Positions 30,401 to 64,000 of a stretch of DNA of 64,000 nucleotides are shown one piece after another. Position numbers and translations under genes: made by a program. The DNA comes from Chiloscyllium plagiosum (taxonomy: Eukaryota), in assembly GCF_004010195.1 (NCBI RefSeq), contig NC_057756.1, positions 6,614,788-6,678,787 of the forward strand, in the 5' to 3' direction. Positions within the stretch are counted from its first letter, which is position 1. Every line of letters begins with the position of its first letter. The notes under the pieces are model-generated. The model was not told the origin of the DNA, did not search any database, and saw nothing but the letters and a program-made list of their open reading frames with translations.

Positions 30401-31898
30401 AACTTAAGAGTTTGAGATGCACAGGGCATGTAAGGAAGAACACTTTAACACAGCAAATAACACTGACCTGGAACTCACTCCCAATAAGGGCAATGGAAGC
30501 AAAGACAATGAGTAACTTCCAAAGGAACTTGGATGGGCTTTGGAAGGAGATACACATACAGGACGACAGGGATACCTTAGTGGCAACTATTGCGATGATG
30601 AATGACCTCCTTCTGTGCCATAATCCAAGTGTCAGACATGTTTCCTTCATAGAGGTACTCAACACTGTTCACCAGACAAACCTCTCATCTCTGGAATCAA
30701 TCAACTGAGCCTCCTCTGGACTGCCTCCGATACTCAATTGGAGTCACTCAAGTAAATGTCCTCAGCCCAACCACTTCAATCTGCTTCATCAGTGGGTTCA
30801 CTTCCACCTTCCCTTTATAATGCATGGAGATGTTTATTTTTTAATGTGGTATTGGGTTCCATTCTCAGCTGGGAGCAATGAGAGCAAGAAAACAGTCAGT
30901 TTTTGAGCTGGTTTGTGACAAGTAACATACACCTCCCAGAGGAGAGAGTCAAGCCATCTTGACATTCAGTAGCATTGCGGAATCCTCCATCATTAACGTC
31001 CCGGGGAAATTACCGTTGACCATGAGCTGAATGCTGTCAGCAATATCAATATCAAGACGAATCCAAGATTGGGAATTCTGTGACGAGCAACTCATCAAAA
31101 CAATCTCCACCGTCCACGAGGCGCAATACTCCCCACTTGCCCACAGTGCCAAAAACACGCAAGAGGCTGAACACCATCCAGGACAAAGCAACCTGCTTGA
31201 TTGGCACCATACCCACCATTGTTGCTGCATTGTATAGCACCTGCACGATTTGTTGCAATGCCTAACCAAGGCTCCTTCAACAGAACCTTACGAATTGCAA
31301 CTTTTACTGCCCAGTTGGGCAAAGTCATCAGGATGAGGCTGACACACCCAGCTGCAAGACCCCCTCCAAGCCCCATGCTTTCCTGATTTGGAAACATATT
31401 GCCATTCCGACAAATGTAACTGCTTCGAATACACTATCCTCAGCTCAAAGTGGGAACGCCAGGACACTCAGTGAAGAACATGATGGGATGTGGTTTGATG
31501 TCCCTTTATCAGTATTGGCCATTGTGTACATGGATGTACAATGACCATGGAGACTTGTTGCTATCCCCTCTCAATCAGATTTCGGTGGAGAATGGGAAAA
31601 CTGGTCAGACTGTGGGAGACCTGGCCTTCCTCAGTCACAGAAACAGTCACCACCTCATCCTCAACTGAAGGACTGAAGAGTTTAACCTGGGGAAAAGGGA
31701 GGAGAATTATAGCGTGAATGTGCTTCCTGCAGCATTCCATCAGTCAGTGAACTGGATAACTGCCACCGTCTCCCGATAGTTCCACTCAGTGAAGTTAGCT
31801 CTTGACTGATTGAATTAGTTAAAAATTAACCTGGTTCATTGACCAGGGACTGCTGGCTGGACACTGTTTAGTACAGGGACCGACGCTGCTCTCACAGG

Positions 31899-31950
31899 AT
31901 GGAGAGAGCCCGACTCACTGCCATTACTGTCTGGTCACTTCTATCTCTTG
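31899..31950 (+). CDS. Leader exon of the CEACAM-like gene (MERARLTAITVWSLLSL)
   Basis: ATG in a good context (aggATGg), hydrophobic stretch, phase-1 donor g|gtgaga, 169-nt intron to the N-domain exon. Confidence 0.85.
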
Positions 31951-32119
31951 GTGAGAGTGAATTTCTCATGTTGGTATTGAGGGTTATGTAGGAAGGCTGT
32001 GGGGTGGGCGGGGGTGCTGGTGAGGATATGTTAAATACAAAGGGTTTCACAGTCTTTCCCTGTCTCCATTTGGAGTAAACTGGCTGAACATTAACCTGGG
32101 ATTTTTCTTCCCCTTGTAG

Positions 32120-32437
32120 TTGACTCTGAGGCTTTGACCATCTCAGTGAGTGAGAGGCGGATTAATGCAGCAATCAGAGACCCTGTGCTCCTGTCAGTGA
32201 GACCGTCGGAGAGGGTGAGGAGTGGATCTTGGAAGCACAATGGGTCAGATGTACTTCTGTGGATTAACACAACAGCAGACATTAATAATGTTTACACGGG
32301 ACGGGTGGAATTCTTACAGAGTAACAGCTCCCTCCTGCTCAAATCAGTCACTGCTTCAGACAACGGAGAGTACTGCGTTACCATGAACGCATTCGTTGAT
32401 GCTGTAGCAAATACAACAATCATCCTTTCTGTGTTTG
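32120..32437 (+). CDS. CEACAM/CD2-type IgV (N) domain exon lacking the canonical disulfide
   Basis: Acceptor tttttcttccccttgtag, donor g|gtgagt. Encodes ...PVLLSV...W...YTGRVEFLQSNSSLLLKSVTASDNGEYCVTM...ILSVF; no B-strand Cys. Confidence 0.88.
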
Positions 32438-33479
32438 GTGAGTAACAGGAATGTTTTCTTTATCCAAGTCGTTAATGCATCGCTTGTTCACAGGCTGCGT
32501 GTGAAACATGTTGGTTTGGGATCATGTATTTTGTCGATCCTGGAAGTCGAATTCTGGCAAGGGAACCACTGAGAAATGTCCTTGTTCAGCAATGAGTAGG
32601 GCCTCTGTACCTTTGGTGAACACACAGATTACAACCATCTACAAGACGCACGACAGCAACTCCCCAAGGCTCCACCAACATGACTTTCCAAACCAGTGAC
32701 CACTTCCTCCTCAGTTTAACTCCCAAGCTTCCTCCGCCTACTGTTAGTCAGCTCTGCCCCAGCCAGTGTGAGGGAGACAGACTCTCATAGTTGTGAAGGG
32801 TTTTTTTTTAAATCATTTTGTGCATGGGATATGGGCATCACTGGCTGGGCTAACATTTGTTGCTCACCACTAATTGCTTTGGATAAAATGGTGGTGAGTA
32901 GCCTTTATGAACTTTTGTATTCCCCAGGCAGTGGTGGCTTCCACAGTGCAGTTGGAGTTTCGGGATTTTGAAACCTGGTGACAGTGAGGGAACAGAACAT
33001 CTAATTCCAAGTCAAGATGAAAAACCTATCTATTTCTACCTTATAGAGCCATCAATACATATAGCATGGAAACAGACCTTTCGGTCCAACATGTCCATGC
33101 TGATTTATTTTCCCAAATTAAACAAGTCCCTCTTGCCTGTTTTTGGCCCATATTCCTCCAATCTTCTCCAACCTTTCCTATCTGAGTACCTGTCCAAATG
33201 CCTTTTAAATTCACCTGCCACTTTCTATAGCAGTTCATTCCACATACAAACCACCCTCTGAGTGAAAAGGTTGGCCCCCCAGTTCCCTTTCCCCTCTAGT
33301 TTTGAACTTCCCCCACCCCTAGAGTAAAGACCTTAGCTATTCACCTCCTCTCCTCATGATTTCGTAACCCTCCATAAGGTCACCCCTCAACCTCCTTCAG
33401 TCGAGTCTTGAATCCACTTAATGACACAGCCTCTGCGGTAAATGACCTTGTGGGAGCAAATAAATCAAGAAATCCCAAC

Positions 33480-41317: not shown

Positions 41318-43181
41318 CTCCAGCATCTGCAGACCTCACTTTCTCCTCAACAAAAATGCATCCATCTCAGATTTAAACTTAACAACTGATCCAGCATTCA
41401 CTGCCATTTTTGGAAGAGTGTTCCAAACGTGTCCCACCCTTTATGTGTCAAAGTGCTCCCCAAAATCTCTCCTGAATGCTCTGTCCCTAATTCTCAGGTG
41501 ATGTCCCCAAGATCTAGAATGCCTAACCAAATAGTTTATCTACCCTGTCTTGTCCTGTTGTGGTTGATATAAGACAAAAACACCCCCCTACACATGCAGA
41601 CATCTCCATCTCGGGGAAGCATTGAAATTACTTTCAAAGAATGGATTTATGAGATTTACACCACTTGGCAGACACATTTTGTGGGTGTCATTGGTTAGGC
41701 CAGCATTTATTGCCCAGAGGGCAGTTAAGAGTCAACCACATCGTTGTGGATCTGGAGTCACATGTAGGCCTAGACCAGGTAAGGAGAACAGATTTCCTTC
41801 GTTAAATGGCATTTGTTAATTTCTTTTTCTGCCAGTTACCAATTACATGGTCACTCTTTGATTCTTCATTCCAGATTTGTATTTATTCGAACCTGGACAT
41901 TTTCCAGAACTCTGGAATTATATCCTGGCAATGATATCACTAGGGCTACCACCTACCCCATATGAAACTGGATGGAATTTATTGATTGCAAGGTCGATGC
42001 ATCAAGTTCTGAGGAATATTTATTTTTGTCACTAGGATCTTGAAACCACTGATTGACATCACATTGCTGTTAAATCTAATGCACTCTTTAGCAGAAGTGA
42101 ATGAGTCCACTAATGTTAATGAAATAGTGAAGGAGCTGGCCAATAGGATGAAGAGGAAATGATGGCCAAGTGTTATTATTGCCAGACTTTTAGTCCAGAC
42201 ATTCAGCTAATTTTTCTGGGGACCAGGGCTCAAATTCTGCATAGTAGATGATGAAATTTTAATTAATTTATTTTTTAACTCTGGCATTAAGAATCAATTA
42301 ATGACCATGAAACCATTGATTATGGTCAGAAAAGCCTAAATGGTTTATTAATGTTCTTTAGGGAAGGAAATCTGCCATCCTCATCTGGTCTGGCCTACAT
42401 GTGACTCTCGATGTGGTTGACTCTCAACTAATCTCTGAAATGACACGGCAAGTCACTTAGTTCAAGGGCAGATCTGGATGGTAAGACATGCTGACCAGGC
42501 AGTGATGCACATGTCACGTGAGTGAATAAAATAATCAGCAGGAAGTATTCGTTTCATTCTGAACATACACTTCCATTTTCCAGAAAAGGGACATATGGCT
42601 TGATACTTTCAAACCAGCAGAATTATATTCAATGAAATTCGATTTAAAAAAGCCTTAACAATAGAAAGCAAAATGGGGAGAGTGACTTCTCAGTGCTTTT
42701 CAAGCAATGTCCTGTCTGAACTGGAAAAGGAATCAGGCAAAACTGGAAGACAATGTGTTCCAATTCACTACGTGGAGCTTGTTCAGCCAAGAATTCTCCA
42801 GCACAGAACCAACCTACAGCCTAATGTCATGAGGTTTAAGACCTTTGTCATGAATTTGGTAAAATACTCCAAATGAGAAGAAGACATGAATACAGTTCAT
42901 TGGGCCTTGAACGTCAATATACTTCCTTGTTATAAAGTTGTCCATTTCTGGAACATGTTTCTCATTTCCATTGCTTTCAGTGGAGAATAAAAATCTGTTT
43001 TTTAGCTTTACATCTGCACTAGCTGATCTACCCTGATTACAGGGAAATTAAAAAATAAGACATGTTCACATGCGGAATGCTGATGGCATGAAGCTATGTA
43101 TGGCTGGAGCTGTTCAATTAAAATAAAACCATGTATTTCATTATTCTATCTTCGATTAATTCTTCTGTATTACATTCACAG

Positions 43182-43460
43182 AGCCAATCTCCTCTGTGTC
43201 TATTATATCCAATGTTTCGAACACAGTGAAAGAGAATGACACAGTGTCCCTGAGGTGCCATGTACTGGGAGATTGGACCGAAATAGTTTGGCTCTTCAAT
43301 GGGAGTCTTGTCAACAGCAAAGGGAAGACAATATTTTCCTCAGGAAATGCCATGTTGACAATAATTCATGTTGACACAAGCAATACTGGCAACTATCGAT
43401 GTATTGCACGTAGTCCTGTGAGTGAAAAAGCAAGCGAGCCCTATTCCTTGAGCTTGGACA
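43182..43460 (+). CDS. CEACAM A-type Ig domain exon (279 nt)
   Basis: Acceptor attacattcacag, donor a|gtaagt. Encodes EPISSVSIISNVSNTVKENDTVSLRC...W..NGS....GNAMLTI..V...NTGNYRCIARSPVSEKASEPYSL, resembling CEACAM A domains (SNNSNPVE.D.V...C; YxC...NPVS...S). Confidence 0.9.
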
Positions 43461-46400
43461 GTAAGTACAATGGATTCACATTGATTTGTATTGAACAATT
43501 GGGTGCTGCATTTTATATGTTAACAGTCTGAGCACCTGGAGGTATTATATTCTGTTCACAGCCCTATACAACTGCAACTTGCCTCCATCAGTAGCAATTG
43601 TGTCTCACAGCATTTAATATCAGATTCTGTTCCTGTCCTGTTCAGGTTAAATTCCTGTTCTGTAACAGGCTGGATGACACTGAGGTGAAGCCAATGGAGC
43701 ATCTACATAGGACCAGGATTGGCCATTCAGTTCATTGAGCCTGTTCCACCATTCAATGGTTGATCTCCTGTCTAGCTCCATATACATGGCTTTGACCCTT
43801 TGCTCAACAAGGCCTTATCTATCAGATTTAAAACTAATAGCTGATCCAGCATCCACTGCCATTTGTGGAAGACAGTTCCAAACATCTGCCACCTTTTGGG
43901 TGTCAAAGAATCATGGAGTTATACAGCACAGAAACAGACCCATTGGTCCAACCAGTCCATGCCAAACATAATCCCAAATGAAACTGGTCCCACCTACCAG
44001 CTCCTGGCCCATACCCTTCCAAAGCTTTTCTACTCATGTATATTACCAAATGTCTTTTAAACGTTATAAATGGACCTGCACTACTTCCTTAGGAAGTTCA
44101 TTCCACCTTGACTGGGTCATCCACTTGACTAGATCACCATGCAGGCTGGGGGAAGCGCAGCAGCTCAGTGGTTAGCACTGCTGCCTCGTAGCACCAGGGT
44201 CCCGTGTTCGATTCCTGCCTTCAGCAAGTGTTTGTTGTTTGCATGTTCTCCCCGTGGGTTTGCTCCGGTTTCCTCCCGCAGGCCAATGATGTGCAGGTTA
44301 GGTGAATTGGCCATGCTAAATTGCGCAAGCATCCAGTGATGTGCAGGCTAGGTGGATTAGCCATTGGAAACGCAGGGTTACAGAGATAGCTTAGGGGGTA
44401 TAGCGGAATGAACTTCAGAGGATCCATGTGCACTCTATGGGCTGAATGGCCTGCTCCACACTGTTGGGATTTTATGATGGCTCTGTGTAAAACATTTACC
44501 CCTCATGTCTTTTGTAAATCTCCTCTCACCTTAAAATGTGTTCCCTAATCTTTAAATCCCCCATTCTGGGGAAAAGACAATTACCATTAACTCTATCTAT
44601 ACCTCTCATTATTTTATAAACTTCTATCAGGTCACCTCTCAACCTCCTACCCTTTAGTGAAAAAGTCCCAGACTATCCAGCCTTTCTTTATAACTCAAAC
44701 CTTTCATACCTGGCAACATCCTGGGAAATCTCTTCTGACCACTCTCCAGCTTGAGAACATCCTTCCTATAACTGGGCGACCAGAACGGGACACAGTGCTC
44801 CAGAAGAGGCCTCACCAATGTCCTGTACAACCTCAACATGACATTCCAACTCCTATACTCAAAGGACTGACCTCTTGAAGCTATAAATTTACAGATGAAC
44901 TATATTCCAAGTAACAGGACAAGGGCCAAAGTGCTTCCTAGCATCTCATCGGAATGTTCTGGCCCTAAATGTCAGACAGCGTCTCAAGTTCCAGAATCTC
45001 CAACCAGTGGAAATAGTCTATCTGTGTCTACCCTGTCCTATCCTGTTAATATCTAGGGTTGGAACTAATATATCGTCTCCTTACCAGCTGGGTGGCACAG
45101 TGGCTCAATGGTTAGCGCTGTCCCATCAGCACCAGGGATCAGAGTTTGGTTCCAGCCTTGAGTGACTGTGTGTGAAGTTTGCACATTCTCCCTGTGTCTG
45201 TGTGGGTTCCCTCCAGGTGCTCCAGTTTCCTTCCATAGTCCAAAGATGTGGAGGTTAGGAAGATTGCCCATCGGAAATTGTCCTGTTGTGTCCAGAGATG
45301 TGTAGGCTGGGTGAGTTATTCGTGTGGGGATAAGGTGGGGTTTCCTTTGAAATGTCAGTGCAGAACTCGATGGGCCAAGTGGTCTTTTCGTGCTGGTTGG
45401 AATTTTAGATGCTACGATTCAGAAAGAAGTGAAATGATGGCCAAGAGTTGGAGTAAATTGGAGTTAAATTAGCTCAAAACCATCTTCCTGCCCATCTTTG
45501 AGTGGATTCTTTTGTGTCCACCTGAGACAACAGACAAGACTTGAGATTCACAAATGCTTCAGGAAGATCACATTTCAGACAGTACAGCACTCCCTCCCTC
45601 CTTTGTGGACATGTCCGTTTAGACTGTGGATAGGGCAGATGTGCAAAGTGACTGAGGGTTCCTGTTGTTCAGCCACCGAAGGCTAAGCCAGCTATAGGAA
45701 GGCTAATGGAATGTTAGCTTTTTCTGCAAGCGGATTTGAGAATCAGGTTTTTGTGAACAATTGGCTGAAGTGTTGCTTGAGCCCATGACATTCTGAGGCG
45801 GGGAGAAGCGTATTATCGATGATCCAAAAAAGAAATCAAGATACCTTCTCAAAAAAGTGCATGTCCACTTGACTAGGTCGCCATGCAGGCTGGGGGAAGC
45901 ATGGTGGCTCAATGGTTAGCACTGCTGCCTCACAGCACCAGAGACCCAGGTTCGATTCCTACCTTGGGCAACAGTGTGGAGTTTGCACATTCTCCCAGTT
46001 GGTTTCCTCCAGGTGCTCCAGTTTCCTCCCACAGTCTAAACATGTGCAGGTTAGGTAAATTGGCCATGCTAAATTCCACAAAGTATCCAGAGATGTGCAG
46101 GCTAGGTGGATTAGCCATTAGAAAGGCAGGGTTATTGGGATAGGTTAGCCATTGGAAACGTAGGATTACTGGGTTAGGTTAGCCATTGAAAACGCATGGG
46201 ATAGGTTGGGGGGGGGGGGGTGAGTGTGGATGGGATGCACTTCAGAGGATCCGTATGTACTCAATGGGCCGAATGGCCTGCCCCCACACTATAGGGATTC
46301 TATGATGGTGAAGACAAAAATGTGATACATTGAGAATTGAATTCTTCTGAGTGTGAGAAAAAGCATTTGAGATGTTTACCATTCTACCAGAGGGTTAAAC

Positions 46401-48043: not shown

Positions 48044-48125
48044 ATCATACCAGTTCAAAGGATAGCAAAGGATACTCAGGATGGAGTATATGGCTTTTGG
48101 CGATACTCGCACCATGTCTAATGAT
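48044..48125 (+). CDS. Stalk plus hydrophobic (TM or GPI-signal) exon of the CEACAM-like gene
   Basis: Acceptor acttcttttgcag, phase 1 in, donor at|gtaagt (phase 2). Encodes NHTSSKDSKGYSGWSIWLLAILAPCLM. Read-through of the donor gives ...CLMM-stop. Confidence 0.78.
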
Positions 48126-48285
48126 GTAAGTAACTCCAACTGGATTCAATCTACACAGTAAAATTTAATGGTGCTCCCTACTCAAAACAGCACTTTCAGG
48201 TCAACACAAAAAGCTCACCCGTAATTGTGTTGAAATGTTTTAACGTGGGAAAGGTATTTAAGCTGCGTCGTTCTGATTGTTGCAG

Positions 48286-48357
48286 ATGCTGTGTGGTCTT
48301 CACCAGGAACAGAATAAGCTGTTGTGATCAGCAATGCTCCTGCTCGTTCCTCAGCAG
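48286..48357 (+). CDS. Putative Cys-rich phase-2 exon A (ICCVVFTRNRISCCDQQCSCSFLS)
   Basis: Acceptor ttctgattgttgcag (alternative in-frame acceptor at 48307), donor ag|gtgaga, 72 nt and frame-preserving. Confidence 0.55.
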
Positions 48358-51300
48358 GTGAGAGTCACGTTTCTTCAGAAGCTTGCTGTAGAATTTCAGC
48401 TCATGAGTTCAATCAGAGTGGGCAGACACCATGTTAGAGAAACACGCCAAAATTTCAAAAAAGCGAGAATGTGCAATAAGATCTGGGTGTCCTTGTATAC
48501 CAGCCGCTGAGAGTAGGCATTGCAGCTACAGCAGGCAATGAGCAAGGCAAATGGTATGATAGCCTTCATAGCGAGAGGACTAGAGTGCAGGAGCATGGAT
48601 CTGGATTAGACTGGTGCTGGGAAAGCGCAGCAGGTCAGGCAGCATCCGAGGAGCAGGAAAATCAACCTTTCGGGCAAAAGCCCTTCATCAGAAATGAGGC
48701 AGGGAGCCTCCAGGGTGGAGAGATAAATGGGAGGGGGGGGTGGGGCTGGGAGAATGTAGCCAAGAGTACAATGGGTGGATGGAGGTGGGGGTGAAGGTGA
48801 TAGGCTGGAGAGGAGGGTGGAGCAGATAGTTGGGAAGGAAGATTGGCAGGTAGGACAGATCATGAGGATGGTGCTGAGTTGGCAGTTTGGAACTGGGGTA
48901 AACTGGGAGGGGGAGGGGAAATGAGGTGAGTCTGTTTCAGGACATGGTTGAAGAGCTGTAGGGCAGAGGAGATGACTTGGGGGTTGCAGTAATCCTTGTA
49001 GAGAGCAGAGCATAGCTTCTTCAAGGTAGGCATCCTTGCAAAAGCCTTGCTGCTATTGTACAGTACCTTTGTGAGATCACAGCTGGAATACTCTGTGCAG
49101 TTTTGTCTTGTTTATCTGAGGAAGACTGTTCTTGCTGGAGAGAGAGTGCAGCAAAGTAATAACAGGCTAATTCTTGGGATGGCAGGACTGATGTTTGAGG
49201 AGAGGTTGAATTGGTTAGGATTTTCATCGCTGGAGTTCAGAAGAATGAGGAAGGAGATATAAACAAATAAAATTGTAACAAGACCAGATATTGTAAAACT
49301 TGAAAGGGTTCAGAAAAGACTTACACGGATTTGCCAGGGTCGGAGGGTTTGAGCTACAGGGAGAGGCTGAATAGGTTGGGCTGCTCTCCCCGGAGCATCG
49401 GAGGCTGAGGGGTGACCTTATAGAGGTTTACAAAATCATAGGATAAATAGACAAGGTATTTTTCCTGGGGTGGGTGAGTCCAGAACGAGAGGGCATAGGT
49501 TTAGGGTGAGAGGGGAAAGATTTAAAAGGGACCTAAGGGGCAACTTTTTCACGCAGAGAGTGGTACGTGTATGGAATGAGCTGCCAGAAGAAGTGGTGGA
49601 GGCTGGTACAATTACAGCATTTGAAAGGCAGCTGGATGGATAGGAAGGGTTTGGAAGGATATGGGCCAAGTGCTGGCAAATGGGACGAGGTTAGGTTGGA
49701 TATCTGGTCGGCATGGACGGGTTGGGCTGAAGGGTCTGTTTTTGTGCTGTCCATCTCCATGACTCTAAGACGAGACAGGAAGGATGGTCCCAGTGACAGG
49801 GGAGTTCAGAACCAGGGGGCTGCTGTCCCATAACACGGGGTAAATAATTTTGGAGAAATCGCTTTACCCAGAGAGTGGTGAGCCTGTGGAATTCTCTATC
49901 ACAGAAAGCAGCCAACTATTACACAATTTTCAGGAGGAGTAGGATATAAGAGGTTAAGTGGATCAAAGGGTATAGGGAGAAAGTGGGAGCAGACCTTGGA
50001 GTTGGATGATTAGCAATGATCTTAATGAATAGCTCAAAGGGCCGAATGGCCTACTCCTGCTCCTCTTTTCTATGTTTCTATGAGTGTTTTACCAAATATT
50101 ATGTCAGTGCAAAGATATTGGAAAGAGTAATTTGCAGAGAAACCAGTCTATTCAATCTGACTGGGTCATGCTAACATTCATATTTCATCAGAATCTCTGC
50201 ACCATCTCATATACTTAGCCAAAATCTCTTCAACACATCTGGAGGCTGATACAGTTACAACATTTAAAAGGCCTCTGGTGGGTATATGAATAGGAAGGGT
50301 TTAGAGGGACTAGCGCTAGCAAATGGGACTAGATTAATTTAAGATATCTGGTTGGCATAGACAAGTTGGATCAAAGGGTCTGTTTCTGTGCTGTACATCT
50401 CTATGACTCTATGACTCTAAATCAGTGCTATTCTCGCCCCCAACCTCTCTGTTCTGCCACTGGTTTCGATCATGGAATTGTTGTGAAAGTAAATATTTAA
50501 GTAAGCATTTCACAAATTGTACTTTCCAACCCCCATTCCACCAGATCTCATCTGAAGTGTCAGCATAAATAAATCTTTATTTACATATTTAGGTAAAAAC
50601 AATGACTGCAGATGCTGGAAACCAGATTCTGGATTAGTGGTGCTGGAAGTTTGGAACTGGGGTGAGGTAGAAACTTCCAGCTCAGCACTCTCCCCATGAC
50701 TTGTCCTACTTGCTTATCTTCTTTTCCCCCTATCCACTCCACCCTCCTCCCTGACCTATCACCTCCATCCCCTCCCCCACTCACCTATTGTACTCTATGC
50801 TACTTTCTCCCCACCCCCGCCCTCCTCTCATTTATCTCTCCACCCTTCAGCCACTCTGCCTTTATTCCTGATGAAGGGCTTTTGCCCTAAACGTCGATTT
50901 TACTGCTTGCATATTTAGGGTCCACTCGCTTTCTTAATGCAAGCAAGGATATTGAGGCAGCAGTGCAAGCGGGCAGCATAGTAACTCAGTGGTTAGCGCT
51001 GCTGCCTCACAGCAGCAGAGACCCTGGTTCCCTTCCACCCTTGGGTGACAATCTGTGTGAAGATTGCATGTTCTGCCTCTAGTGTACGTGTGTGTGTGTG
51101 TTTCTGTCAGGTGCTGTGGTTTCTTCCCACAATCCAAACATGTGCACATTAAGTGGATTTGCCATGCTAAGTTACCCATTGTGTTCAGGGATGTGTGAAA
51201 TGTGCATGGGAAATGCAAGGTTACAGAGCTGGGGATGGGTCTGGGTGGGATGTTTTTTGAAGGGTCACTGTGGACCCATTGGGCCGAATGGCCTGTCTCC

Positions 51301-51974
51301 ACCCTGTAGAGATTCTATTTTTAAAAAGTGTGAAATAAATTCACAAGAATCATGCGAGGACTAGGGGCAATAGCCATTGGGGAGAATTAAACATTTCAGG
51401 CTTTTACCTCAGCAAAGAGAATCGCCTTCTTATAGAAATCTTTGAAATGATTAGAAAATTTGAGTCTAACACTAGAGAGTATAAATTAACCAAGAATTAA
51501 TTCAGGAGAGAATTCAAGAGAAATGTCTGTCGGGAGAGTGGTGTAACAAGGAACATAGTACCAATGAAGAGTAATTAAGATGATTAGGATATAAATGGAT
51601 GCATTTAAGGCGAGTTTACATAAGTACATGATGAGGACTGTGATGGAAAGTAATGATGATGCGGTTTGATGCTATAGGCTTGGCAGAGACAACTGTGCAT
51701 CATAAACAGGGCCCTAGGCAATTTCGTATGCAGTTAGTTCTATGCAATATGTAATTAGAGAGTACTTAGTTTTAACTATCAACTATAAATTGTTGACACT
51801 GAGCAATTTAATAATACAGTGAATATATGAATCAATTTTAAATTAAGTTAGTGGTTTTCTGGTTGTTTGAGAACTAATTTCAGGGGAAGGTGCTGCTCAG
51901 AATGTAACACAGATACCAGCAGCTTCCAACCAAAGGCAACAACTCTTTCCTTTACATCCATCTGCCGATTGCTC

Positions 51975-52750
51975 CACAAACTCACGTTCACACTCACACG
52001 GACATACACACACACATTCTCACACTTGCACATTCACACACAGACACAGACACACATACATGCGCACACACATACGCGCACACGGAGTCTCTCTCTCTCT
52101 CATTCTCACATACACATACACATACACACACACAGAGCACCACTCTCTCCCTCACATACTCATTGCCACACAGACAAACACACACTGTCAACACGCAAAT
52201 GCATTGACACCTCTTGCACACACACACGCAAGCACACTCTCATTTACACACACTCATGCTTGCGCATGCACACACACGCTAATACATGCAAACACACACA
52301 CCTACTCACATGAGTACTCACACGCATTCTCTTTGCCACCCATGCTCATACTGACAAACGTACAGCCATGCACACACATACAAACTCACACTGACACACA
52401 CACACAGTCATGTGTGCGCACACACACATACACACACATAGATCCACAAATTCACACTGACATACACACAACCATTTGCACACACACAGACCCACAAACC
52501 CACACTGACACACTCACACTGATGCACACATACACAGACATTTACACTAACACACAAATAGGCACACACACTCACATATACGCACTATACCAATGCTCAC
52601 AAACACAGACACACGTACAGATACCTACAAATGCATGCAGACACATGCACATAAGCGTACAATCACACACATACACAAAACACACACACACAGACACAAA
52701 CTGGTGCACACACACACACACATATGCGAATGCATAAACACACACATGCA
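51975..52750. repeat. Degenerate (CA)n low-complexity tract
   Basis: About 780 bp of CA-rich sequence, which explains the His/Thr-rich ORFs. Confidence 0.95.
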
Positions 52751-52966
52751 TTCATTCATTAAATAATGAGTAATCAATTGTGTCTATTTCAGTTGTTAAA
52801 TCTTTAAAGCTACAGTAGATGTAAGTATGGATAATATTTTGTCAGCAATAGTTCCTTTGTTAAACTCTGTCATAAAATTAAATTTGTGGACAATTGCCTT
52901 TCATGTGAGCAACACGTATTATCAGACAATAAATGCTGCAAAAGATGCATTTTCTTTCTCCAATAG

Positions 52967-53041
52967 GTATTTATTCTATTTTTGGGTGTCGTGCTGTAAC
53001 CGAAAAGCTTCGGACAACATCACTGACAGTGGGGAAAGCGG
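52967..53041 (+). CDS. Putative CC-repeat exon B (xYLFYFWVSCCNRKASDNITDSGES)
   Basis: Strong acceptor ttttctttctccaatag, donor gg|gtaaga, 75 nt, phase 2-2. Confidence 0.68.
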
Positions 53042-54409
53042 GTAAGAGGTCCTTTCTCTTTGGGAGAAGGCTATTCTGCTTGTGAAATTAGAATTAGTTC
53101 ACAGGATGAGCCGAATATCTAGACAAAAATGTTACTCCCTCCCAGGTCACCATGATACTGACAAGCCATCTGAAGCCCAGAGTGGACCCAGTGAGATTTT
53201 CTGCCAGGCAAATGTTTTACTGCATGGGTTTGAGCGTCTTGGTTAAAAAAACGCCAGGTGCTCTGAGGGGATGAAAACATTGTAGACACTTGTCCCACTA
53301 TAGGCAGTGGCTGTCTCTTTCCCTGTTCTGATACCATTAAAGGGGCAATTTAAATTTTATTCTGTTGTTCCAGCTGTAAGATACAATGGTGTCCGATCAC
53401 TGCAAATTTAGTTTGGGCATAAAACATATGGGCCTTTGTTTGATCAGAGCCTCATCATTCCAATTGTAGATTTTGATAGTTCAGAAGGAGGCCATTCATC
53501 CGATTGTGTCTGTTCCACTCTGGAAAGAGCTACCTAATGAGTGCCATTCTCCATAGCCCGCTAAATTCACCACTGTCAAATATGTGCCCACTCTCTTCCT
53601 ATGGAATCCACCTTCGCCACTCTCCCAGACAGCGCATTCCAAATCCTAACAACTCTCTGAGCAAAAACATTTAGACAGGTAGATGGATAGGAAAGGTTTA
53701 GAGGGATATGGGCCAACTGCAAGCAAATGGGACCAGTTCAGTTTGGGATTGCTGCTCGGCATGGATGGGTTGGACCGAAGGGTCTGTTTCTGTGCTGTAT
53801 GACTCTATCACTCTGAGTTTCTCCTCACCTCACTCCGAGCTCTCTCGCTGACAATCTTGAAATTGCAACCCCTACATACCGACTAATGGGAACAGAATAT
53901 CCTACTTTACCCTGTTGAAATAATTTTGAACACCTCAGTAAGAGTACCCCACCCATTACTAGAGGTCAAAGTTTCATTTGGGGAGAAATTGCACATGTTT
54001 ATCTAATTTTTGGTTGCTGAAGTCATTACTGTGCTGTTCAAACACTCCAAGTCTTTTTGTTTCAATACATCTATTTCAACCCTCCCTCTGCCTCTACAAA
54101 ACCACACTTCCTTTGTACTCTTACTTCCTGCCAACTTGTTCCCACTGTCATGTCACTTTTCTCACGATTTCTCTAATTGTAGTTTGTTTTCAGATGCAAT
54201 CTTCTGCCTCTGTCACTATCCATCCCAGTTGCTCAGTTTGAAATTTGTTTTCTAATCCTTATCTGGCTTCCTTTATACGAATTACATGACTGCTGTACAG
54301 AATATATTTACCTGCACCCCAACATTTCAATTAATTGATTGCGAGAGAATCTAGGACCAGAGGGCACAGTCTCTGAAGAAGGGGTCGCACATTTCAGATG
54401 AGTTGAGTT

Positions 54410-55210
54410 GATTTGATTTATTATTGTCACGTGTGCAGTGAAAAGTGTTGTTTTGCATGCTGTCTAGGCAGATTGTACAACGCAAAGCGCATCAGGGTAA
54501 CAGAACAGAGTGCAGAATACAGTGTTAAAGCTACAGAGAAGATGCAGAGAGAGAGAGAGGGGTCAGAATTAACATTTGAGATGTCCATTCAAACGTTTGA
54601 TTACAACGGGGATCAAGCTGTTCTTGAATCTGTTTGTACGCGTACACAAGCTTTTCTATCTTCTGCCCGACAGAAGAGGATGGAACAGAGTAAAACCTGG
54701 GGGAAGGGTCTTTGATTGTGTTGGTTGCTTCCTGAGACAGCAGGATGTATAGATGGAGTCAGTGGATAGGAGGCTGGTTTGCATGATCACAAACTCTCTG
54801 TAGTTTCTTGCAGTCTTGGGAAGAATGGATGCCACACCACACCGTGATGCATCAGAGAGGATGCTTTCTGTGGTGCATCCATAAAGGTTCGTCCAGAATC
54901 TTTATGGACCTGCTGAATTTCTTTAGCTCCTGAGGGAGTAGAGGCATTAATGTGCTTCCTTGACCATCGTGTCAGTATGGGTGAACCAGGACAATCGTTG
55001 GTGATCATCAGTCTCAGGAACCTGACACTCTCGACTATCTCCACCTTGGCACCATTGATCCAGAAAGGGTACGCTTTCCTACTCTGGTTCCTGAAGTCAA
55101 TGACCAGCTCCTTCATTTTGCTGACATTGATGGATGGATTGTTGTCTTTACACCATGCTGTTAAGCCTCCATCTCTTTCTTGTACTCTGTCTCCTCATTG
55201 TCTGACATCT
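54410..55210 (-). mobile_element. Rex1/L2-group non-LTR 3' fragment
   Basis: KELVIDFR.......INGAKVEIVESVRFL is typical of the post-RT region of these LINEs; degenerate. Confidence 0.7.
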
Positions 55211-55789
55211 GGCGTTACAGTGGTGTTTCTCCTCTCAGAAAGAAGTGCAATTCTTTACCATATCGGGCTAACAAGGCTGAGTCATTAAGTATATTCAAGG
55301 CTGAAATAGACAGATTATTAATCATTAAGTGGAATCAAGGGTTATGGGGAAATTGCAGGAAAGTGGAGTTGAGGGTTATCAGATCGATCATGATATCATT
55401 GAATGGCAGAGCGGACGCAATGGGCTGAATGGCCTTATTCTGTTCCTATGTTTTATGCATCATGTTTCCTTGTTTATCTTGTGTCTGCATAAAGTAAGAA
55501 ATTGTCTGGGGCAAAAGTGGCGGTATCAGGCAGCATGCAATGAATGATTGTCACATTCCACAATACTCAGATGTGATTATTAGCAGATGTGGAGGTGCCG
55601 ATGTTGGACTGAGGTGGTCAAAGTTAAAAATCACACAACACCAGGTTATAGCCCAATAGGTTTCGGGAATGCAATTTGAAAGAAATTATTTGCAGAAGCA
55701 CAGAGCATTTTAAGGTACGAATGAAGACCTTTTGTGCTCAGTCTGTCAAAGATGAGGAATAACAAGATGTATGTTCCTCTATTTAACAG

Positions 55790-55870
55790 CAATCTTGCAG
55801 GCACTTGGATGGCATGTTGTTCCGCAAGACTGAAAAAGGAGTGTGACTCACCTTGCATTGAGGAACCCAG
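55790..55870 (+). CDS. Putative CC-repeat exon C (xNLAGTWMACCSARLKKECDSPCIEEP)
   Basis: Acceptor ttcctctatttaacag, donor ag|gtaaaa, 81 nt, phase 2-2, CC at codons 9-10. Confidence 0.65.
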
Positions 55871-57869
55871 GTAAAACCTACTTAAACAGCAATAAACTTT
55901 GAACCTGTCGGTGTGTATGCAGAGATTACGAAATGACATATTCAGAATTCTGAATGTTGCAGCCCGCCATTCCATTTGGAACATCTGCAATGTTTTCACC
56001 CATTCACATAAATGCATTTGGAGAATACAAGCTAAATGGGAGTCTCAAAGAAAAATGTAAAGCATTCAGCAGCTCATGCAGCTCCTTGTTAAGGTAATTG
56101 ACAAATCTGAGTGCTACTGCACAGTCATCAACTGAAGCGTTAAACATTGTTTTAGTTTCCACGGTTGCTGTGTTGAGTTTGGAGTATCTTCTACTTTTGA
56201 TTCCATCTTTATAAAGCATTTCAACAATTCCCATGCTTTTGCATCACTCACCATTTGTGAACTGCACATTGTACTGAGTGGAGCTTTCAATCATTTTGAG
56301 AGATTTATCAAACTATAGTTTGGCGAACTTAATTGGAGCCTTTCTTGATGACATTCTTTCCTGTTGAGCCAAATCCACACTTGCCTATGCATTTCCAAGA
56401 GTGTTTATATATTATTTTTATTTTTTTGTGTCAAGCGTACTCCAGTACAAAAGTACAGTGAAAGGTTTTCCGTGTCACCACAGACAGCACTATGTTAGTG
56501 TTACAACACAGGAGAAACTCTCCTGCTTAGTGTAACCAGCAACACAGAAAAGATTTATCCCATGCAGTAATCTGTGGAAATTCGAGAGTTCAAGAACTAT
56601 TTAAAGTAAAAATTAACAACTTTATTTCTTGAAGTATAACAGAGAGTAATTAAATAACGACAATATACAATTTCATCCTCTAACCTATCTTTTACTTTCT
56701 CCTCGATAATACTAATCTGATAAAACCCCCAATTAAGTTTTGCAAAACAAAACTTCTTTTCTCAAAATCAGGCAGCTTTCAGTTTTCTCTGAATTCCTGT
56801 CTTCATTTCTTCTTCTTGGGGATTCAGTTTCACAGGTTACTGATCAATAAAGGTACCTTTTAAGAGAGCTATTTTTCAGGCAGTCATTTTACATGCTAGT
56901 GACTTGGCAGTTCTCATCTCAACTGTTCAATTTTCCCCAGTCTTAGACTCCCAAAGCATCGGATTGTGTCATTGGCTTTTAAGATTGTCAATATACTAAA
57001 TTCCAACTGGATTGGAGTTTGATATTTTTTGGGGTATAATTTAAACTGATTGGCCTAATTCGAGTCTGTTTTGTCGTTTCCAGGCAACCAGCTACCCCAG
57101 TAGCTGGAGCCCATGTTCTTTTTTCAGAACCCTTAGTGCTGTCAGGTAGCTTTTGCGAGCTTTTAACTCTCTTAAAGGTACAGTACACTCACGCCTTCAT
57201 AACATTTGGTACAAGTACCTCGGTACAAAAACTCAAGGTAGAAAGAAACAGGAACAAGCTTAAAAGTTTAACATTACAGTCATTCTTAGTTTTAAGTTGA
57301 AAAATAAAGAAATAAAGTCCAAAGTTCCAACATTGCAGGCTTTCTTAAGTGCTTAGCTTGATTGGGATGGCAGATTTCAAGTGGGAAATTAATACTGGGG
57401 ACTTGGACCTGAGCATTTCATTCATTTTGTAAAAAGCTTTGAGGACACTCTACCAGTGAATAATCAGCAGTCACCTCCACGTCTGTTCCCAATCGGGTTG
57501 CTGGACCTGGACAAATGCATTTGCCATTTTCTGTTTGTATACAAATAGCCTTGACAAGTTACAATTTCCAGACTGCCCCTGCCATGATAATTGGCTTCAT
57601 TCGTCTGAATACTGAACATGTTTATTTCCTTCACCTCGAATCACAGAAAGAGGCCAAATGGCCCATCGTGTCTGTACTGGCTCCTGAGAGAGTTACCCAG
57701 ACAGTCCCATTCCCCATCCCTACCTCCGTGTCCTTCCAAATCCATCACTTTCCATCAGTTCTCTGAACACATGCCAGAGCGAATGTTGTAACACTGTAAG
57801 TTTATCCACCTTCAAGTAGTGTATAAGTCGAGAACAAGGACTGTGCACTGACCATCTATTCCCACGCAG

Positions 57870-57950
57870 GACCCTGAGTGGCCTTTCCCTGTCTTGCTGC
57901 AGCAGTGTGATAGGAGAGAAGAATGAATTCCAGGATGAAACGAAAACTGA
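57870..57950 (+). CDS. Putative CC-repeat exon D (xTLSGLSLSCCSSVIGEKNEFQDETKT)
   Basis: Acceptor tctattcccacgcag, donor ga|gtaagt, 81 nt, phase 2-2, CC at codons 9-10. Confidence 0.7.
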
Positions 57951-60900
57951 GTAAGTTTTAACATTGGCGCAAAAATGTGTCATTTGATTCAGTGTGAACT
58001 GTCAAAAATACACTTAATACTAAATCGTTTGCTGTCACCTCACTGTAGAAAGATTTTTTTTCCTGTTTGATGTCATTTTTATTCATTCGAAGGCTAGCTG
58101 TGACTGATTTTATTGCACATTCCTAATTGCCCTGAAAGACCTGGTGCTAAATGGTCTTGCTCTGGTGCAATCTAATAGATGTTCAAAGCAGGGACAAGAG
58201 TGGGGTCCCAGTTTTCACACCCAGAGCCAGTAAAGGAACAACTATATAGTCCTGATTCAGCTAGTATGTGGTTTGGAGGGGATCAGATGGTGGTGTTCCA
58301 ATGTATCTGCTGCCTTTAGCTTTCTAGACAGTAGTGGCTGCTGATTTGGAAAGTCTTTGAAGGTCTGTGCCTCACAAATCTTCCCTAATGTCAATTACTT
58401 CGACCTGACCTGCCCCTATGTTTCTTTAAAATCTTAGAATCCCTATAGCGCAGAAGCCATTCAGCCCATTCATTTTGCACTGACCTTCTGAAGAGCATCA
58501 TGCCCAGACTCATCACCCCATCTCTGTAACCCTGTATTAATCATGGTTAACCCATCCCTGTGCACTATGGGAGAGTTTAGCATGGCCAATCCACCCTAAC
58601 CTGCACATCCCTGGACACTATGGGACAATTTAGCATGGCCAATCCATCCTAACCTGCACATCCCTGGACACTATGGGACAATTTAGCATGGCCAATCCAC
58701 CCTAACCTGCACATCCCTGGGCACTATGGGACAATTTAGCTTGGCCAATCCACCCTAACCTCCTGTGGGCAGCACGGTGGCACAGTGGTAAGCACTGCTG
58801 CCTCACAGCGCCAGAGATCCGGGTTCAATTCCCGCCTCAGGCGACTCTCTGTGTGGAGTTTGCACATTCTCCCTGTGTCTGCGTGGGTTTCCTCCGGGTG
58901 CTCCGGTTTCCTCCCACAGTTCAAAAATGTGCAGGTTAGGTGAATTGGCCAGACTAAACTTGCCCTTGGTGTTCGGTGAAGGGGTAAATGTAGGGGAATG
59001 GGTCTGGATGGGTTGCGCTTCGGCGGGTTGGTGTTGACTTGTTGGGCCGAAGGGCCTGTTTCCACACTGTAAATAATCTAATCTAATCTTTGGACTGTGG
59101 GAGGAAACTGGAGCACCCAGAGGAGACCCACGCAGACACAGGGACAACGTCCAAACTCCACACAGACAATGGAAACAGGTTCACTATTCATAGAATTATC
59201 ATCAAATCCTTACTGTGTGGAAGCAGGCCATTCAGCCGATCAGGTCTGCCCCAACCCTCCAAAGAGCATCTCACCCACTCCCAGACCCACCCCACTGCCC
59301 TTTCCTTGTAACCCTGCATTTCCCACTGCTAACCCACCAAGCCTGCATATCCCTGGGCACTATGGGACAATTTAGCATGGTCAATCCACCCTAACCTGCA
59401 CATCCCTGGACACTATGGGACAATTTAGCATGGCCAATCCGTCCTAACCTGCACATCCCTGGGGGCACTATGGGCCAACTTAGCATGGCTAATCTACCCA
59501 ACCCTAGACACAGGGAGAATGTACAAACTCCCACACACAGTCACCTGAGGGTGGAACCAAACCTGAGTCCCTGGTGCTGTGAGGCAGCAGTGCTAACCAG
59601 TCAGCCAATATGGCACCCTTTCATGTCGGCACAAAAGGTACTATTGTGTCAGCTTTTAACCATTCCATGTCTCAGTGATTTCCATATTCATATCAGCATA
59701 TGTAAAACAATTTCCTCTAAATTCTGTCTTGATCTGTTACAGACCACTTTACTTTCATGGGCCCTCATTCTCCACTTTCCCAGAATCAAGAACACTTTCT
59801 CTACACCTACCCTATCCATGCCCTTCATAATTTGAAGATTTAGATGAGCCACCACTTCAAGAAAGCATATTAACCCAGGCAGCTTCATCTTTCATCACAG
59901 ATGTCAGTTCCCAGTTCTGGCATCTTCATTACCACCTCATTTTTGCAGCTTTTCCAGGGAACAATATTTGATTTGCAAAGTGGAGAGCAGACCTAGGTGC
60001 AGTACTCCAAGTCTGGCCTAACCCAGGTGCCAAGTCATAGAGCGATACTGCACAAAACATGCCCTTCTGCCCAACTCGCTCGTGCAGACCAGGTTTCCTG
60101 AACTGAACTAGTCCCATTTGGCTGTGTTGTAGGGGGTGTTGTCGAACCGAGAGGAGGCACATAGTTCCTTGAAGGTGGAGTCGCAGGTAGACAGGCTGGT
60201 GATGAAGGCTTTCGGCACACTTGCCTTCATCAGTCAGAGCACTGAGTACAGGAGTTGGAACATCATGTTGCACCTGCACGAGACAGTGCTGAGGCTACAT
60301 TTGGAATAATTGGCTCTGATATAACGTGATAGAACATAGAAAAGTACAGCGCAGAAAAGGCCCTTAGGCCCATGACGTTGTGCCGAGAGTTAATCCTAAT
60401 GCAAAACATAGCAACTTGACCTACACACCCCTCAACTCACTGCTATCCATGTGGATGTCCAGCAGTTGCTTAAATGTTCCCAAGGACTCTGCTTCCACCA
60501 CCACGGCTGGCAATGCATTCCATGCATTCACAACTCTCTGCGTAAAGAACCTTCCTCTGACTTCTCCTTTGTACCTTCCTCCTAATATCTTCAAACTATG
60601 ACTCCTCGTACCAGTCAATCCTGCCCTGGGGAAAAGTCTCTGGCTATTGACTGTATCTATTCCTCTCATAATTTTGTACACCTCGATCAGTTCTCCTCTC
60701 TTCCTCCTTCTCTCCAGAGAGAAAAGTCCAAGCTTATTCAACCTTTCTTCATACGGCAAGCCCTCCAGTCCAGGCAGCATCCTGGTAAACCTTCTTTGCA
60801 CCCTCTCCAAAGCCTCTGTACCTTTCCGATAGTAGGACGACCAGAACTGGACACAATATTCCAAGTGTGGTCTCACCAGGGACTTGTAGAGCTGCAGCAA

Positions 60901-63269
60901 AACCTTGAGGCTGTTAAACTCGATCCCCCTGTTAATGAAAGTCAAAACACCATATGCTTTCTTAACAACACTCTTGTGCGATCTCGTGTTGTAAGAAAAT
61001 TAATGGGACTGGAATCGCGTTATAGCCAACACAGTTCGTGTTCTACAAATAATGGTCTAAATTCTTCAATTGCCATAAATCTAATTGTGCTGAAGAAACA
61101 TGGGTTATAGCAGAACTTGTACTGTGCATCATTCTAATCGCCCTGTTGTAGGAAGGATATTATTAAACTGGAAAGGGTGCGATAAAGGTTTTGGCCCACA
61201 AATCTTTATACTTTTCCTAACCAGGCATACCTATCCAAATGTCTTTTAAATTTTGTAATTGTACCATCATCTACCACTCCTTTCAGCAGCTCGTTCCATG
61301 TAGGCATCACCCTGTGAGTGAAAAGTTTGCCCCTCAGGTCCCTTTTAAATATTTCCCCTCTCACCTTAAACTGCTATCCTCTAGTTTTAGACTCCCTGAC
61401 CCTTGGAAAAGCACTTTGGCTATTCAACTTAGCGGTACCCCTCGCGATTTTATAAATGTCTATTAGGTCACCCCTCAGCCTCTTACATTCCAGGGAAAAA
61501 AAGGTCTCAGCTTTTCCAGCCTCTCCTTTTAACTCAAACCCTCTGCCATTCGAGTGTAATGTAAATTCTCAGCAGCTCTACTCCATTAGAAATGAACCCC
61601 CATTGCATTGTATTTTGTTAATAATCAAACACCCAGTGTGATTTAATTTGAAAATTTCAACCACATCCCTTCCATGCACAGTCCAAGTCATTTAAATATA
61701 AGCTAAACCAATGTGGGATCCTAGCTTGATATTGAGCTGCCAGAGAAAGTGGTAGAGATGGGTACAATTACAGCATTTAAAGGATATTTGGACAGGCACA
61801 TGGATAGTTAAGGTTTAGAGGGATATGGGCTAAATGTCAGCAAATGGGACGAGTTCAGGTTAGGAAACCTGGTCTGCATGGACCATTTGGGCCAAATGGC
61901 CTATTTTTTACGCTGTATGACTCTGTGACTGACCTGACTGAATCTGTGCGTCTATCTCACCTTAAACTGATCTCCCCAGTTCCTCATTGAAGTGCAAGCT
62001 TAGATCATGAGCGAGAGTGCTAAAATGGAGTTGAACTTGAAATCTCATTCGACCAAGGGGACACTATATTACACTGGATTCACTGTCCACCATAGATAGT
62101 CCATGAATTTACAAGGATGTTGATGGGGTTGAATGGATTTGAGGGATGGGAGAGACTGAATAGGCGAAGATCACTTTCCCTGGAGTGTCGGAGGCTGGGA
62201 TTTATAACATCATGAGGGGTGAATGGACATGGTCTTTTTTTCCCCAGGGTATAGGAGTCCAAACTATGAGAGGTGAGAGAGGAAAGAATTAAAAGGGACC
62301 TGAGGGGGCACTTTTTCATGCAGAGGGTGGTACATGTGGGCGGCACGGTGGCACAGTGGTTAGCACTGCTGCGTGCTCCGGTTTCCTCCCACAGTCCAAA
62401 GATGTGCAGGTTAGGTGAATTGGCCATACTAAATTGCCCGTAGTGTTAGGTAAGGGGTAAATGTAGGGGTATGGGTGGGTTTCGCTTCGGCGGGTCGGTG
62501 TGGATTTGTTGGGCCGAAGGGCCTGTTTCCACACTGTAATCTAATCTATGTATGGAATGAGCTGCCAGAGAAAGTGGTGGAGACTGTTACAATTACAGCA
62601 TTTAAAAGATCTGGATGGGGAGATGAACAGGAAGGGTTTAGAGGGATATGGCCGGTGCTGGCAAATGTGACTAGGTCAGATTGGGACGTCTGGTCGGTGT
62701 GGACAAATTGGACCGAAGGGTCTGCATCTGTGCTGTACATCTCTCTGAGCGCATGACTGTCCTGTTTTGAATAGGAATGTAAAATTTATCGTCTTCCAGT
62801 CCTCTGTTGCCGTCACGTTATACAGAAAGGTTGAAGAATTCTGATCATCATTAGTTTGTTTGTTAACTTCTGGTGCACGTCAGCCAGTTAGGAATGACAT
62901 CTGACCCACCAGCACTGCTAACCTTTATTTTTATCCTATCCACTGTCTCTACCACCTCATCCTTTACAGTAACGGTAACCACATTCTCCTCTTTCATGAA
63001 GGCAACAAAAGCACTCACTTAGAACCTCAGCCATTCCTTCTTTGTCTCCAAGAAGATTCACATTGCTTGCTAATTTGTAAATCCTTTCCTGAGCATTTTT
63101 GTACCTTCACTTTACACTACGGTGGCTCAGTGGTTAGCACTGCTACTTCACAGCACCAGGAACTCAGGTTCGATCCCGCCCTTGAGCGACTATCTGCGTG
63201 AAGTTTGCACATTCTCCCCGTGTATACGTGGGTTTCCTACGGGTGCTCCGGTTTCCTTCCACTGTTCAA

Positions 63270-63700
63270 AGATGTGCAGGTTAGGGTGGACTAACCATGC
63301 TAAATTGCCCATAGTGTCCAGGGATGTGCAGGTTAGGGTGGGTTGGCCATTGTGTCCAGGGATGTGCAGGTTAGGGTGGATTGGCCATGCTAAATTGTCT
63401 CATTGTGTCAAGGGATGTGCAGGTTAGGGTGGATTGGCCATGCTAAATTGTTTCATTGTGTCAAGGGATGTGCAGGTTAAGGTGGATTGGCCATGCCAAA
63501 TTACCCATAGTGCCCAGGGATGTGTAGGTTAAGGTGGATTGGCCATGCCAAATTACCCATAGTGTCAAGGGATGTGCAGGTTAAGGTGGATTGACCATGC
63601 TAAATTGCCCATAGTGTCCAGGGATGTGCAGGATAGGGTGGATTGGCCATGCTAAATTGCCCTGTGGTCCAGTGATATGCGGGTTAGGGTGGATTAGCCA
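63270..63700 (+). repeat. HE1 SINE internal 53-bp unit expanded to about 8 copies; inverse arrays at 58560-58760 and 59340-59500
   Basis: Tandem gatgtgcaggttagggtggattggccatgctaaattgcccatagtgtccagg-type units. Confidence 0.9.
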
Positions 63701-63947
63701 TGATTAATGTGGGGTAATGGGGATGGGGTAGGGTGGTGAGTTTGGGTGTGATGCTGTCCGGACAGGCAGTGTGGACAGGATGGGCCGAATGGCTTGCTTC
63801 CACACTGTAGACCTGTGAAATTTTATTTGTGAAAATACTGATTGTATTTTTCATTTCTTCCTTTGCTTGGCTGACTATTGCTGTGGAAAGTGACATTGAT
63901 CATGAGCTCCCTTTTCTGAAATGAATAGATCTGGTTTTATTTTCCAG

Positions 63948-64000
63948 AATTTATCGTGGCATCTTGCTATCTTGCTGTAGCGGCAGGTCACCCAATGGAA
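63948..64000 (+). CDS. Putative CC-repeat exon E, truncated by the window end (xIYRGILLSCCSGRSPNG...)
   Basis: Acceptor ggttttattttccag, phase 2 in, CC at codons 9-10. Nucleotide similarity to exon D (gtggcatcttgctatcttgctgtagc vs gtggcctttccctgtcttgctgcagc). Confidence 0.65.

Follow-up and report, generated by a model that had tools for sequence, protein, structure and literature searches.

Eight serial dicysteine exons in the tail of a shark CEACAM receptor: a likely palmitoylated array in the probable inhibitory member of an ITAM pair

A stretch of 64,000 nucleotides of the Chiloscyllium plagiosum genome (hereafter the window; contig NC_057756.1, positions 6614788-6678787) holds a CEACAM-like ectodomain followed by short, scattered exons that encode two adjacent cysteines (CC). 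This raises the question of whether these exons belong to one receptor tail and what their cysteines are for. An earlier note on this DNA left three options: (a) a tail built serially from palmitoylation modules, (b) mutually exclusive cassettes that each complete the transmembrane (TM) helix, and (c) exons of a separate gene. We analyzed the window together with 400 kb downstream (extended numbering runs past 64000, and the contig position is the extended number plus 6614787). The CC exons are spliced serially in the cytoplasmic tail of a single gene. With a probability of roughly 0.6, we propose that this gene encodes one shark CEACAM receptor, whose eight serial CC exons, likely palmitoylated, would pin about 200 tail residues to the inner leaflet, and that it is the inhibitory half of a pair with a gene that carries an ITAM (immunoreceptor tyrosine-based activation motif).

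The array was "hidden" only from the open reading frame track, since the gene model is already in RefSeq: a 577-residue protein of C. plagiosum ("uncharacterized LOC122544179") matched the IgV exon query with 100% identity. LOC122544179 has six RefSeq isoforms, five of which were mapped to the genome exon by exon, and the eight CC exons stand in series in all six. The protein runs from the leader through IgV, IgC, and one TM segment (encoded by two exons) to the CC array and four tyrosine motifs (YVNP, YAAV, YVDL, and YTSL). The five exons first proposed (e1 to e5) were all recovered at their positions. They have AG acceptors and GT donors and are entered in phase 2, and the four complete ones measure 72, 75, 81, and 81 nucleotides (nt), which keeps the frame; [S/A]CC falls at codons 8-10 in four exons, as claimed. 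Extending beyond the window, as the earlier note had advised, added three further CC exons (e6-e8), the tyrosine exons, and the stop. The exons are as follows.

31899..31950, plus strand: leader exon, ATG at 31899, ending in phase 1 (RefSeq protein mapped to the genome)
32120..32437, plus strand: IgV-like (N) exon, without the B-F disulfide pair and with the Arg and Asp of the CEACAM salt bridge
43182..43460, plus strand: IgC-like exon, two invariant cysteines
48044..48125, plus strand: 82-nt exon (phase 1 to 2) for the stalk and the beginning of the TM helix
48286..48357, plus strand: e1, 72 nt, phase 2-2, with TM end, CC, basic RNR, SCC, and CxC
52967..53041, plus strand: e2, CC unit, 75 nt (RefSeq mapping; RNA joint to e3)
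55790..55870, plus strand: e3, CC unit, 81 nt (RefSeq mapping; RNA joints)
57870..57950, plus strand: e4, CC unit, 81 nt (RefSeq mapping; RNA joint from e3)
63948..64013 (extended; window part 63948..64000), plus strand: e5, CC unit, 66 nt
extended 70120/70123-70185, plus strand: e6, CC unit
extended 73103-73183, plus strand: e7, CC unit
extended 75576-75656, plus strand: e8, CC unit with YxN motif
extended 77756-77808, plus strand: 53-nt exon, shifting phase 2 to 1, directly after the array
extended from 80578, plus strand: 60-nt exon with a GC donor
extended 81562-81618, plus strand: YAAV exon
extended 83711-83748, plus strand: 38-nt exon
extended near 84752, plus strand: optional exon
extended from 85013, plus strand: last exon, with two tyrosines and the stop

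Positions 52800-58100 were aligned to sequencing reads. In three of four runs (X1, X2, and X3, taken as RNA by guess, none being recorded as RNA, and coming from two studies and two organisms), contigs carried the GT-AG joints 53041>55790 (e2 to e3) and 55870>57870 (e3 to e4), and one contig each in runs X2 and X3 spans e2-e3-e4 without intron. A skip from e2 to e4 was absent among the best 15 of 100 joints in this region. Junction reads are thus present at two of the predicted connections, and they refute the mutually exclusive use of option (b), the TM helix being completed by e1. Option (c) found no support, as the CC exons are joined to the Ig exons in 6/6 isoforms and in the orthologues of seven other sharks. 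For option (a), both the splicing and the family were borne out by the RefSeq isoforms, the RNA joints, and the matches to solved structures described below.

Transcripts of the gene vary around this series. One C. punctatum isoform skips a whole CC unit. In RefSeq isoform X3, an internal donor in e8 keeps the frame and removes the YVNP motif; isoforms X4 and X6 use an alternative last exon near extended 86983 and lose the two final tyrosines, and the peptide of that exon resembles an interspersed repeat common across the window. A tandem acceptor of e6 (CAG AAG) gains or drops one Arg, and the 60-nt GC-donor exon is missing from one S. torazame isoform and from the Heptranchias record. Read-through at the TM-exon donor (48044-48131) would meet an immediate stop (PCLMM-stop) and leave a hydrophobic C-terminus like that of a glycosylphosphatidylinositol signal or a tailless form; none of the six RefSeq isoforms has it.

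To what extent the CC exons are kin was judged beyond the motif itself. Within the window, the bare rule (acceptor, phase 2, and CC at codons 9-10) was found at 5 of 740 sites on the plus strand and at none of 646 on the minus strand. However, in the table of phases and positions (66 cells), two further cells reach 5 and 7, and no RefSeq isoform includes the match at 57759. Counting the bare motif thus proves little by itself. A leave-one-out DNA profile over nt 1-34 separated the units better: each of e2-e8 (7/7) outscored all 9061 acceptor-like background sites. Unit-versus-unit DNA identity was 46% before the CC (27% when shuffled) and 36% after it (29% when shuffled). This likeness beyond the CC motif indicates that e2-e8 are paralogues by tandem exon duplication. 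Paralogy, as claimed for all the exons, is not demonstrable for e1, whose pre-CC sequence scores as background; it is best treated as the TM-completing exon, with CC pairs and a CxC of its own. A transposon origin of the units, named beforehand as a refuting outcome, was not what we found: a genome-wide DNA search, made with e3, returned a single copy, and the unit DNA profile, run over 463.5 kb, matched only the seven units below E 0.38.

The tail query retrieved eight proteins, all from sharks (two Chiloscyllium, Stegostoma, Cetorhinus, two Scyliorhinus, Mustelus, and Heptranchias). The conservation of frame and CC expected in related sharks holds, with 63 of 64 CC pairs kept across the eight orthologues. 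All 56 instances of e2-e8 read aliphatic-[S/A]-C-C/Y, preceded by W in 40, and the tails contain 26-29 cysteines in about 200 residues; the CxC of e1 is present in 8/8 species, and extra cysteines occur in e6 and e8. Mean identity among the eight sharks is 70% for the array (82% in the seven-residue cores and 65% in the rest), above that of the ectodomain (63% for IgV and 63% for IgC).

Two large searches gave no homologue of the tail beyond the sharks. With the tail-only record, phmmer against 1.84 billion representatives gave one match, a shark orthologue, and a full-length profile search gave 17, all from sharks. Word-indexed searches found no ray or chimaera orthologue, and their sensitivity and length limits mean that absence is not established. 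The tails of three CC proteins had no Pfam match at E<=10 (HMMER filters drop weak matches), and no profile of the known Cys-rich families (PLAC8/cornifelin, claudin, LSR) matched the tail. The ESM Atlas gave one feature match at 0.78, with a structural TM-score of at most 0.45 and no family lead. Two resemblances were dropped for want of a significant match: that of GLWxSC to the claudin signature, and that of HLxGIWM repeat frames to the CC unit. No publications on the CC tail or on shark paired CEACAMs were found in a search that left subscription journals outside its coverage.

The CEACAM-like nature of the ectodomain was confirmed. The CEACAM N-terminal IgV-like domain is described as having an Arg-Asp salt bridge instead of a disulfide (PMC4079198); in the orthologues, the V domain has no cysteine pair and keeps the Asp (SDxGxY) in 7/8 and the Arg (TGRV-like) in 6/8, and the IgC-like domain has two invariant cysteines. 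The best solved-structure matches (PDB) were CEA (3e-29) and CEACAM1 (4e-24). CEACAM genes are placed between lipe and bcl3 (PMC5112662), and we found a LIPE domain ~1.4 Mb upstream on the same contig, with further CEACAM-like V exons within 340 kb. Exon 7 of CEACAM1 is given as 53 bp (PMC11646291); since the exon after the array has that size, the array seems to have arisen from symmetric exons inserted into a tail of the CEACAM1 type. Going by size and position only, the 53-nt exon may be a homologue of exon 7.

If the gene is a CEACAM of the CEACAM1 type, does it have a partner? An ITAM-bearing paralogue lies on the same contig, and two tracts of the CC gene are nearly identical to it.

extended about 431300-443190, minus strand: ITAM paralogue, ~350 kb from the CC gene, same contig
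31807..32474, plus strand: leader, intron 1, and IgV tract; 95.5% identity with the ITAM paralogue, probably through gene conversion
43154..43497, plus strand: IgC exon tract; 91.9% identity with the ITAM paralogue, probably through gene conversion

Beyond these tracts, the two loci match each other at 80-88% identity, in what look like repeats. The genes stand in opposite orientation (CC gene plus, ITAM gene minus) in this genome, the only one in which orientation was read. The tail of the paralogue contains YT|DL-x7-YEQL, its first YxxL split by a phase-0 intron, and this pattern occurs in at least one isoform in 6/7 species and not in the one Stegostoma record. Within species, the IgV domains of the CC and ITAM genes are 89, 95, 96, and 96% identical; the C. 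plagiosum and Stegostoma orthologues are 74% identical. In all five species having both, the CC ectodomain groups as sister to the ITAM one (support 82-100); a topology uniting the seven ITAM-type genes was rejected (p-AU 2.8e-6). Judging from these sequences, the ectodomains of the two genes have apparently been homogenized by gene conversion in 5/5 species.

This is in line with the paired CEACAMs of Xenopus, described as having opposite orientation, exon-limited conversion, and an ITAM YxxL split by an intron, in a study stating that paired receptors had not yet been examined in fishes (PMC5112662). As all three features recur here, the CC gene is most likely the inhibitory member of the pair. 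The shark gene thus resembles the CEACAM1/CEACAM3-type paired receptors of human and Xenopus in its IgV without disulfide plus IgC, in its CEA and CEACAM1 structure matches, possibly in its setting, with a LIPE domain on the same contig, and in its opposite orientation and exon-limited conversion with the ITAM paralogue; as in CEACAM1, its tail has an exon of 53 nt, and its last exon has two tyrosines. Unlike them, it has the TM segment split over two exons and eight phase 2-2 CC exons before the 53-nt exon, adds YxN and YA[AVI][VT] motifs, does not always have a strict inhibitory motif (ITIM), and its conversion covers IgC and leader too. The TM exon of the ITAM paralogue (extended 438745-438884) encodes a Glu within the helix in four carpet-shark records, not in Heterodontus or Scyliorhinus. 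Between the partners (extended 266845-275528 and 369446-426399) lie three more CEACAM-like V exons and a seven-Ig CEACAM5-like gene.

Regarding the function of the cysteines, we looked at topology and at the build of the units on hydropathy and interfacial scales. In each of three CC proteins, only one 19-residue window exceeds 2.0 on the Kyte-Doolittle scale (in C. plagiosum, the TM segment is IWLLAILAPCLMICCVVFT), and with one TM segment only, the tail would be cytosolic. A unit consists of a short hydrophobic core, closed by the CC, and a charged loop that comes after it. The nine-residue cores have interfacial energies of -1.8 to -5.9 kcal/mol, whereas the linkers have +3.1 to +8.2, so the cores would favor the membrane interface and the loops would not. 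Dicysteine motifs are reported to be the most frequent setting for palmitoylation in TM proteins and to make up 25% of the sites, FxCC being the most enriched (PMC5498535). In the BK channel, the STREX exon encodes a cytoplasmic dicysteine that, when palmitoylated, tethers the channel's C-terminus at the plasma membrane (PMC2911306); that is a single alternative exon in an ion channel, unlike the seven paralogous, mostly constitutive serial exons of the shark, and we claim no homology. By sequence and by analogy, the CC units are likely S-palmitoylated. Palmitoylated proteins usually have few cysteines (PMC8104966), which would make 26-29 of them, spaced out in an array, uncommon.

A possible course of events is the following. 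Symmetric phase 2-2 exons lying after the TM exon and before the 53-nt exon would have been duplicated. The unit (W-aliphatic-S/A-C-C plus a polar loop) would put Trp and aliphatic residues into the membrane interface, where DHHC enzymes could acylate it. Repeated anchors may then slow receptor diffusion, favor ordered domains or junctions, and keep the distal YxN, YA[AVI][VT], and two C-terminal tyrosines beside acylated Src-family kinases. Once phosphorylated, these tyrosines could recruit inhibitory or adaptor SH2 proteins, and the ITAM partner may mimic the ectodomain as an activating decoy. The YxN motif is present in 8/8 orthologues and follows the Grb2-type definition (PMC3342071). The LAT, NTAL, and PAG adaptors likewise have juxtamembrane cysteines followed by tyrosine motifs including this one (PMC3342071). 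They differ from the shark receptor in having one CxxC and almost no ectodomain. YAAV(N)K may also resemble the Csk site of PAG.

Several points weigh against this proposal. On the RNA side, the raw single-cell run X18 gave 0 reads over 52800-58100, the positive runs stem from two studies and are only presumed to be RNA, their contigs are no proof that one molecule carries all exons, and the joints read-tested are 2/8 between the TM exon and e8. On the lipid side, no strict palmitoylation consensus exists (PMC7655920), residue -2 of the units is aliphatic and never F, and the seven units lie 25-180 residues from the TM segment, whereas known sites in TM proteins are mostly TM-adjacent. On the signaling side, a strict ITIM ([ILVS]xYxx[LV]) occurs in only 3/8 orthologue records, C. 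plagiosum not among them, the last Tyr is replaced by Phe in S. torazame, and two records stop before the last exon. The consensus of the tyrosine-based switch motif (ITSM) is absent from the tail in the eight records, C. plagiosum having PQYTSL and CHYVDL. AlphaFold was uninformative for the tail (pLDDT about 20, eight sequences).

Among the alternatives, the cysteines could bind metal instead of lipid, either at Zn sites that the units form inside the tail or in zinc clasps shared with a partner. CD4 and CD8 form such clasps with Lck. The sheer number of cysteines, the CxC of e1 in every species, and the extra cysteines of e6 and e8 would suit metal binding. However, the conserved element is an adjacent CC in a Trp/aliphatic core of negative interfacial energy, with no CxxC or His spacing and no Pfam or structural match, and a whole unit can be skipped in C. 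punctatum; we consider metal binding unlikely.

The same low standing is given to a tail that is acylated for junction or adhesion assembly, with tyrosines acting mainly in adaptor binding or endocytosis and immune inhibition secondary. The model here would be the angulins (LSR, ILDR1, ILDR2), single-pass Ig proteins with a Cys-rich cytoplasmic region, of which angulin-1 is palmitoylated (PMC8104966, PMC10706136); those human TM proteins with aromatic borders that are richest in Cys are reported to be junctional Ig proteins (PMC8104966). The strict ITIM being often unmet and the tail being better conserved than the ectodomain also fit. Angulins differ in having one compact juxtamembrane Cys cluster instead of spaced repeats, and the word-indexed, Pfam, and phmmer searches gave no sequence match between them and the shark tail. 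Against this reading stands the repeated homogenization of the ectodomain with an inverted ITAM gene, which the Xenopus study reports as the signature of immune paired CEACAMs (PMC5112662); junctional and immune roles are compatible with each other.

A reversible redox or thiol switch (disulfides, nitrosylation) gating the tyrosine motifs appears quite improbable: vicinal thiols in a cytosolic, apparently unstructured tail would allow it, but it leaves unexplained why hydrophobic residues are conserved at set positions ahead of every CC. As for exclusive cassettes, a gene separate from the receptor, or noise left by transposons, a plausible helix would also result if the TM exon were joined to e2, and the unit profile (a hidden Markov model) weakly matches the HLxGIWM frame recurring in repeats (E about 1.6 or worse), but the serial RNA joints, the 6/6 isoforms, the eight species, the single copy of e3, and the seven units in 463.5 kb leave them almost no chance.

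CEACAMs of cartilaginous fishes are already known, and the gene is annotated and uncharacterized; what is undescribed is the CC array, a repeat module on the CEACAM paired-receptor design. It is a transcribed, shark-wide protein module without a Pfam family and without a homologue detected outside sharks. A broader statement, to which we give slightly less than even odds, is that sharks evolved a repeat domain of a new kind, in which exons encode a multi-anchor acylation array, and that they did so within the inhibitory partner of the oldest CEACAM pair known, making a receptor with its own raft adaptor. The array offers a natural test, exon by exon, of the number and spacing of acyl anchors needed by a receptor tail, and the locus shows that cartilaginous fishes, too, have a probable inhibitory/ITAM pair of CEACAMs with apparent gene conversion.

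Where could the unit come from? Read in the phase of the units, the YAAV exon gives TIKGISHICCS-stop, with CC at codons 9-10 and G at codon 4. It shares 22 of 34 bases with e4, a value reached by no other of the 9061 acceptor-like sites, and ranks in the top 18 of these on the full unit profile; on the pre-CC part, 924 sites score as high, and in best pairwise pre-CC identity 61 do (top 0.7%). If an exon with a tyrosine motif were copied to a place upstream of the 53-nt exon, which shifts the frame, its Y-A-A would be read as C-C. The pre-CC match ranks no higher than the top 0.7% and was spotted in hindsight, so we regard the birth of the CC unit by frameshift as rather doubtful; if true, it would be one of the rare cases in which the origin of a new domain can be traced, here to a signaling exon.

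Finally, a Siglec/CD22-like gene lies just upstream of the CC gene on the same strand (window 3734-14632), with V-set, C2-set, and similar exons at 9209, 11194, and 14150.

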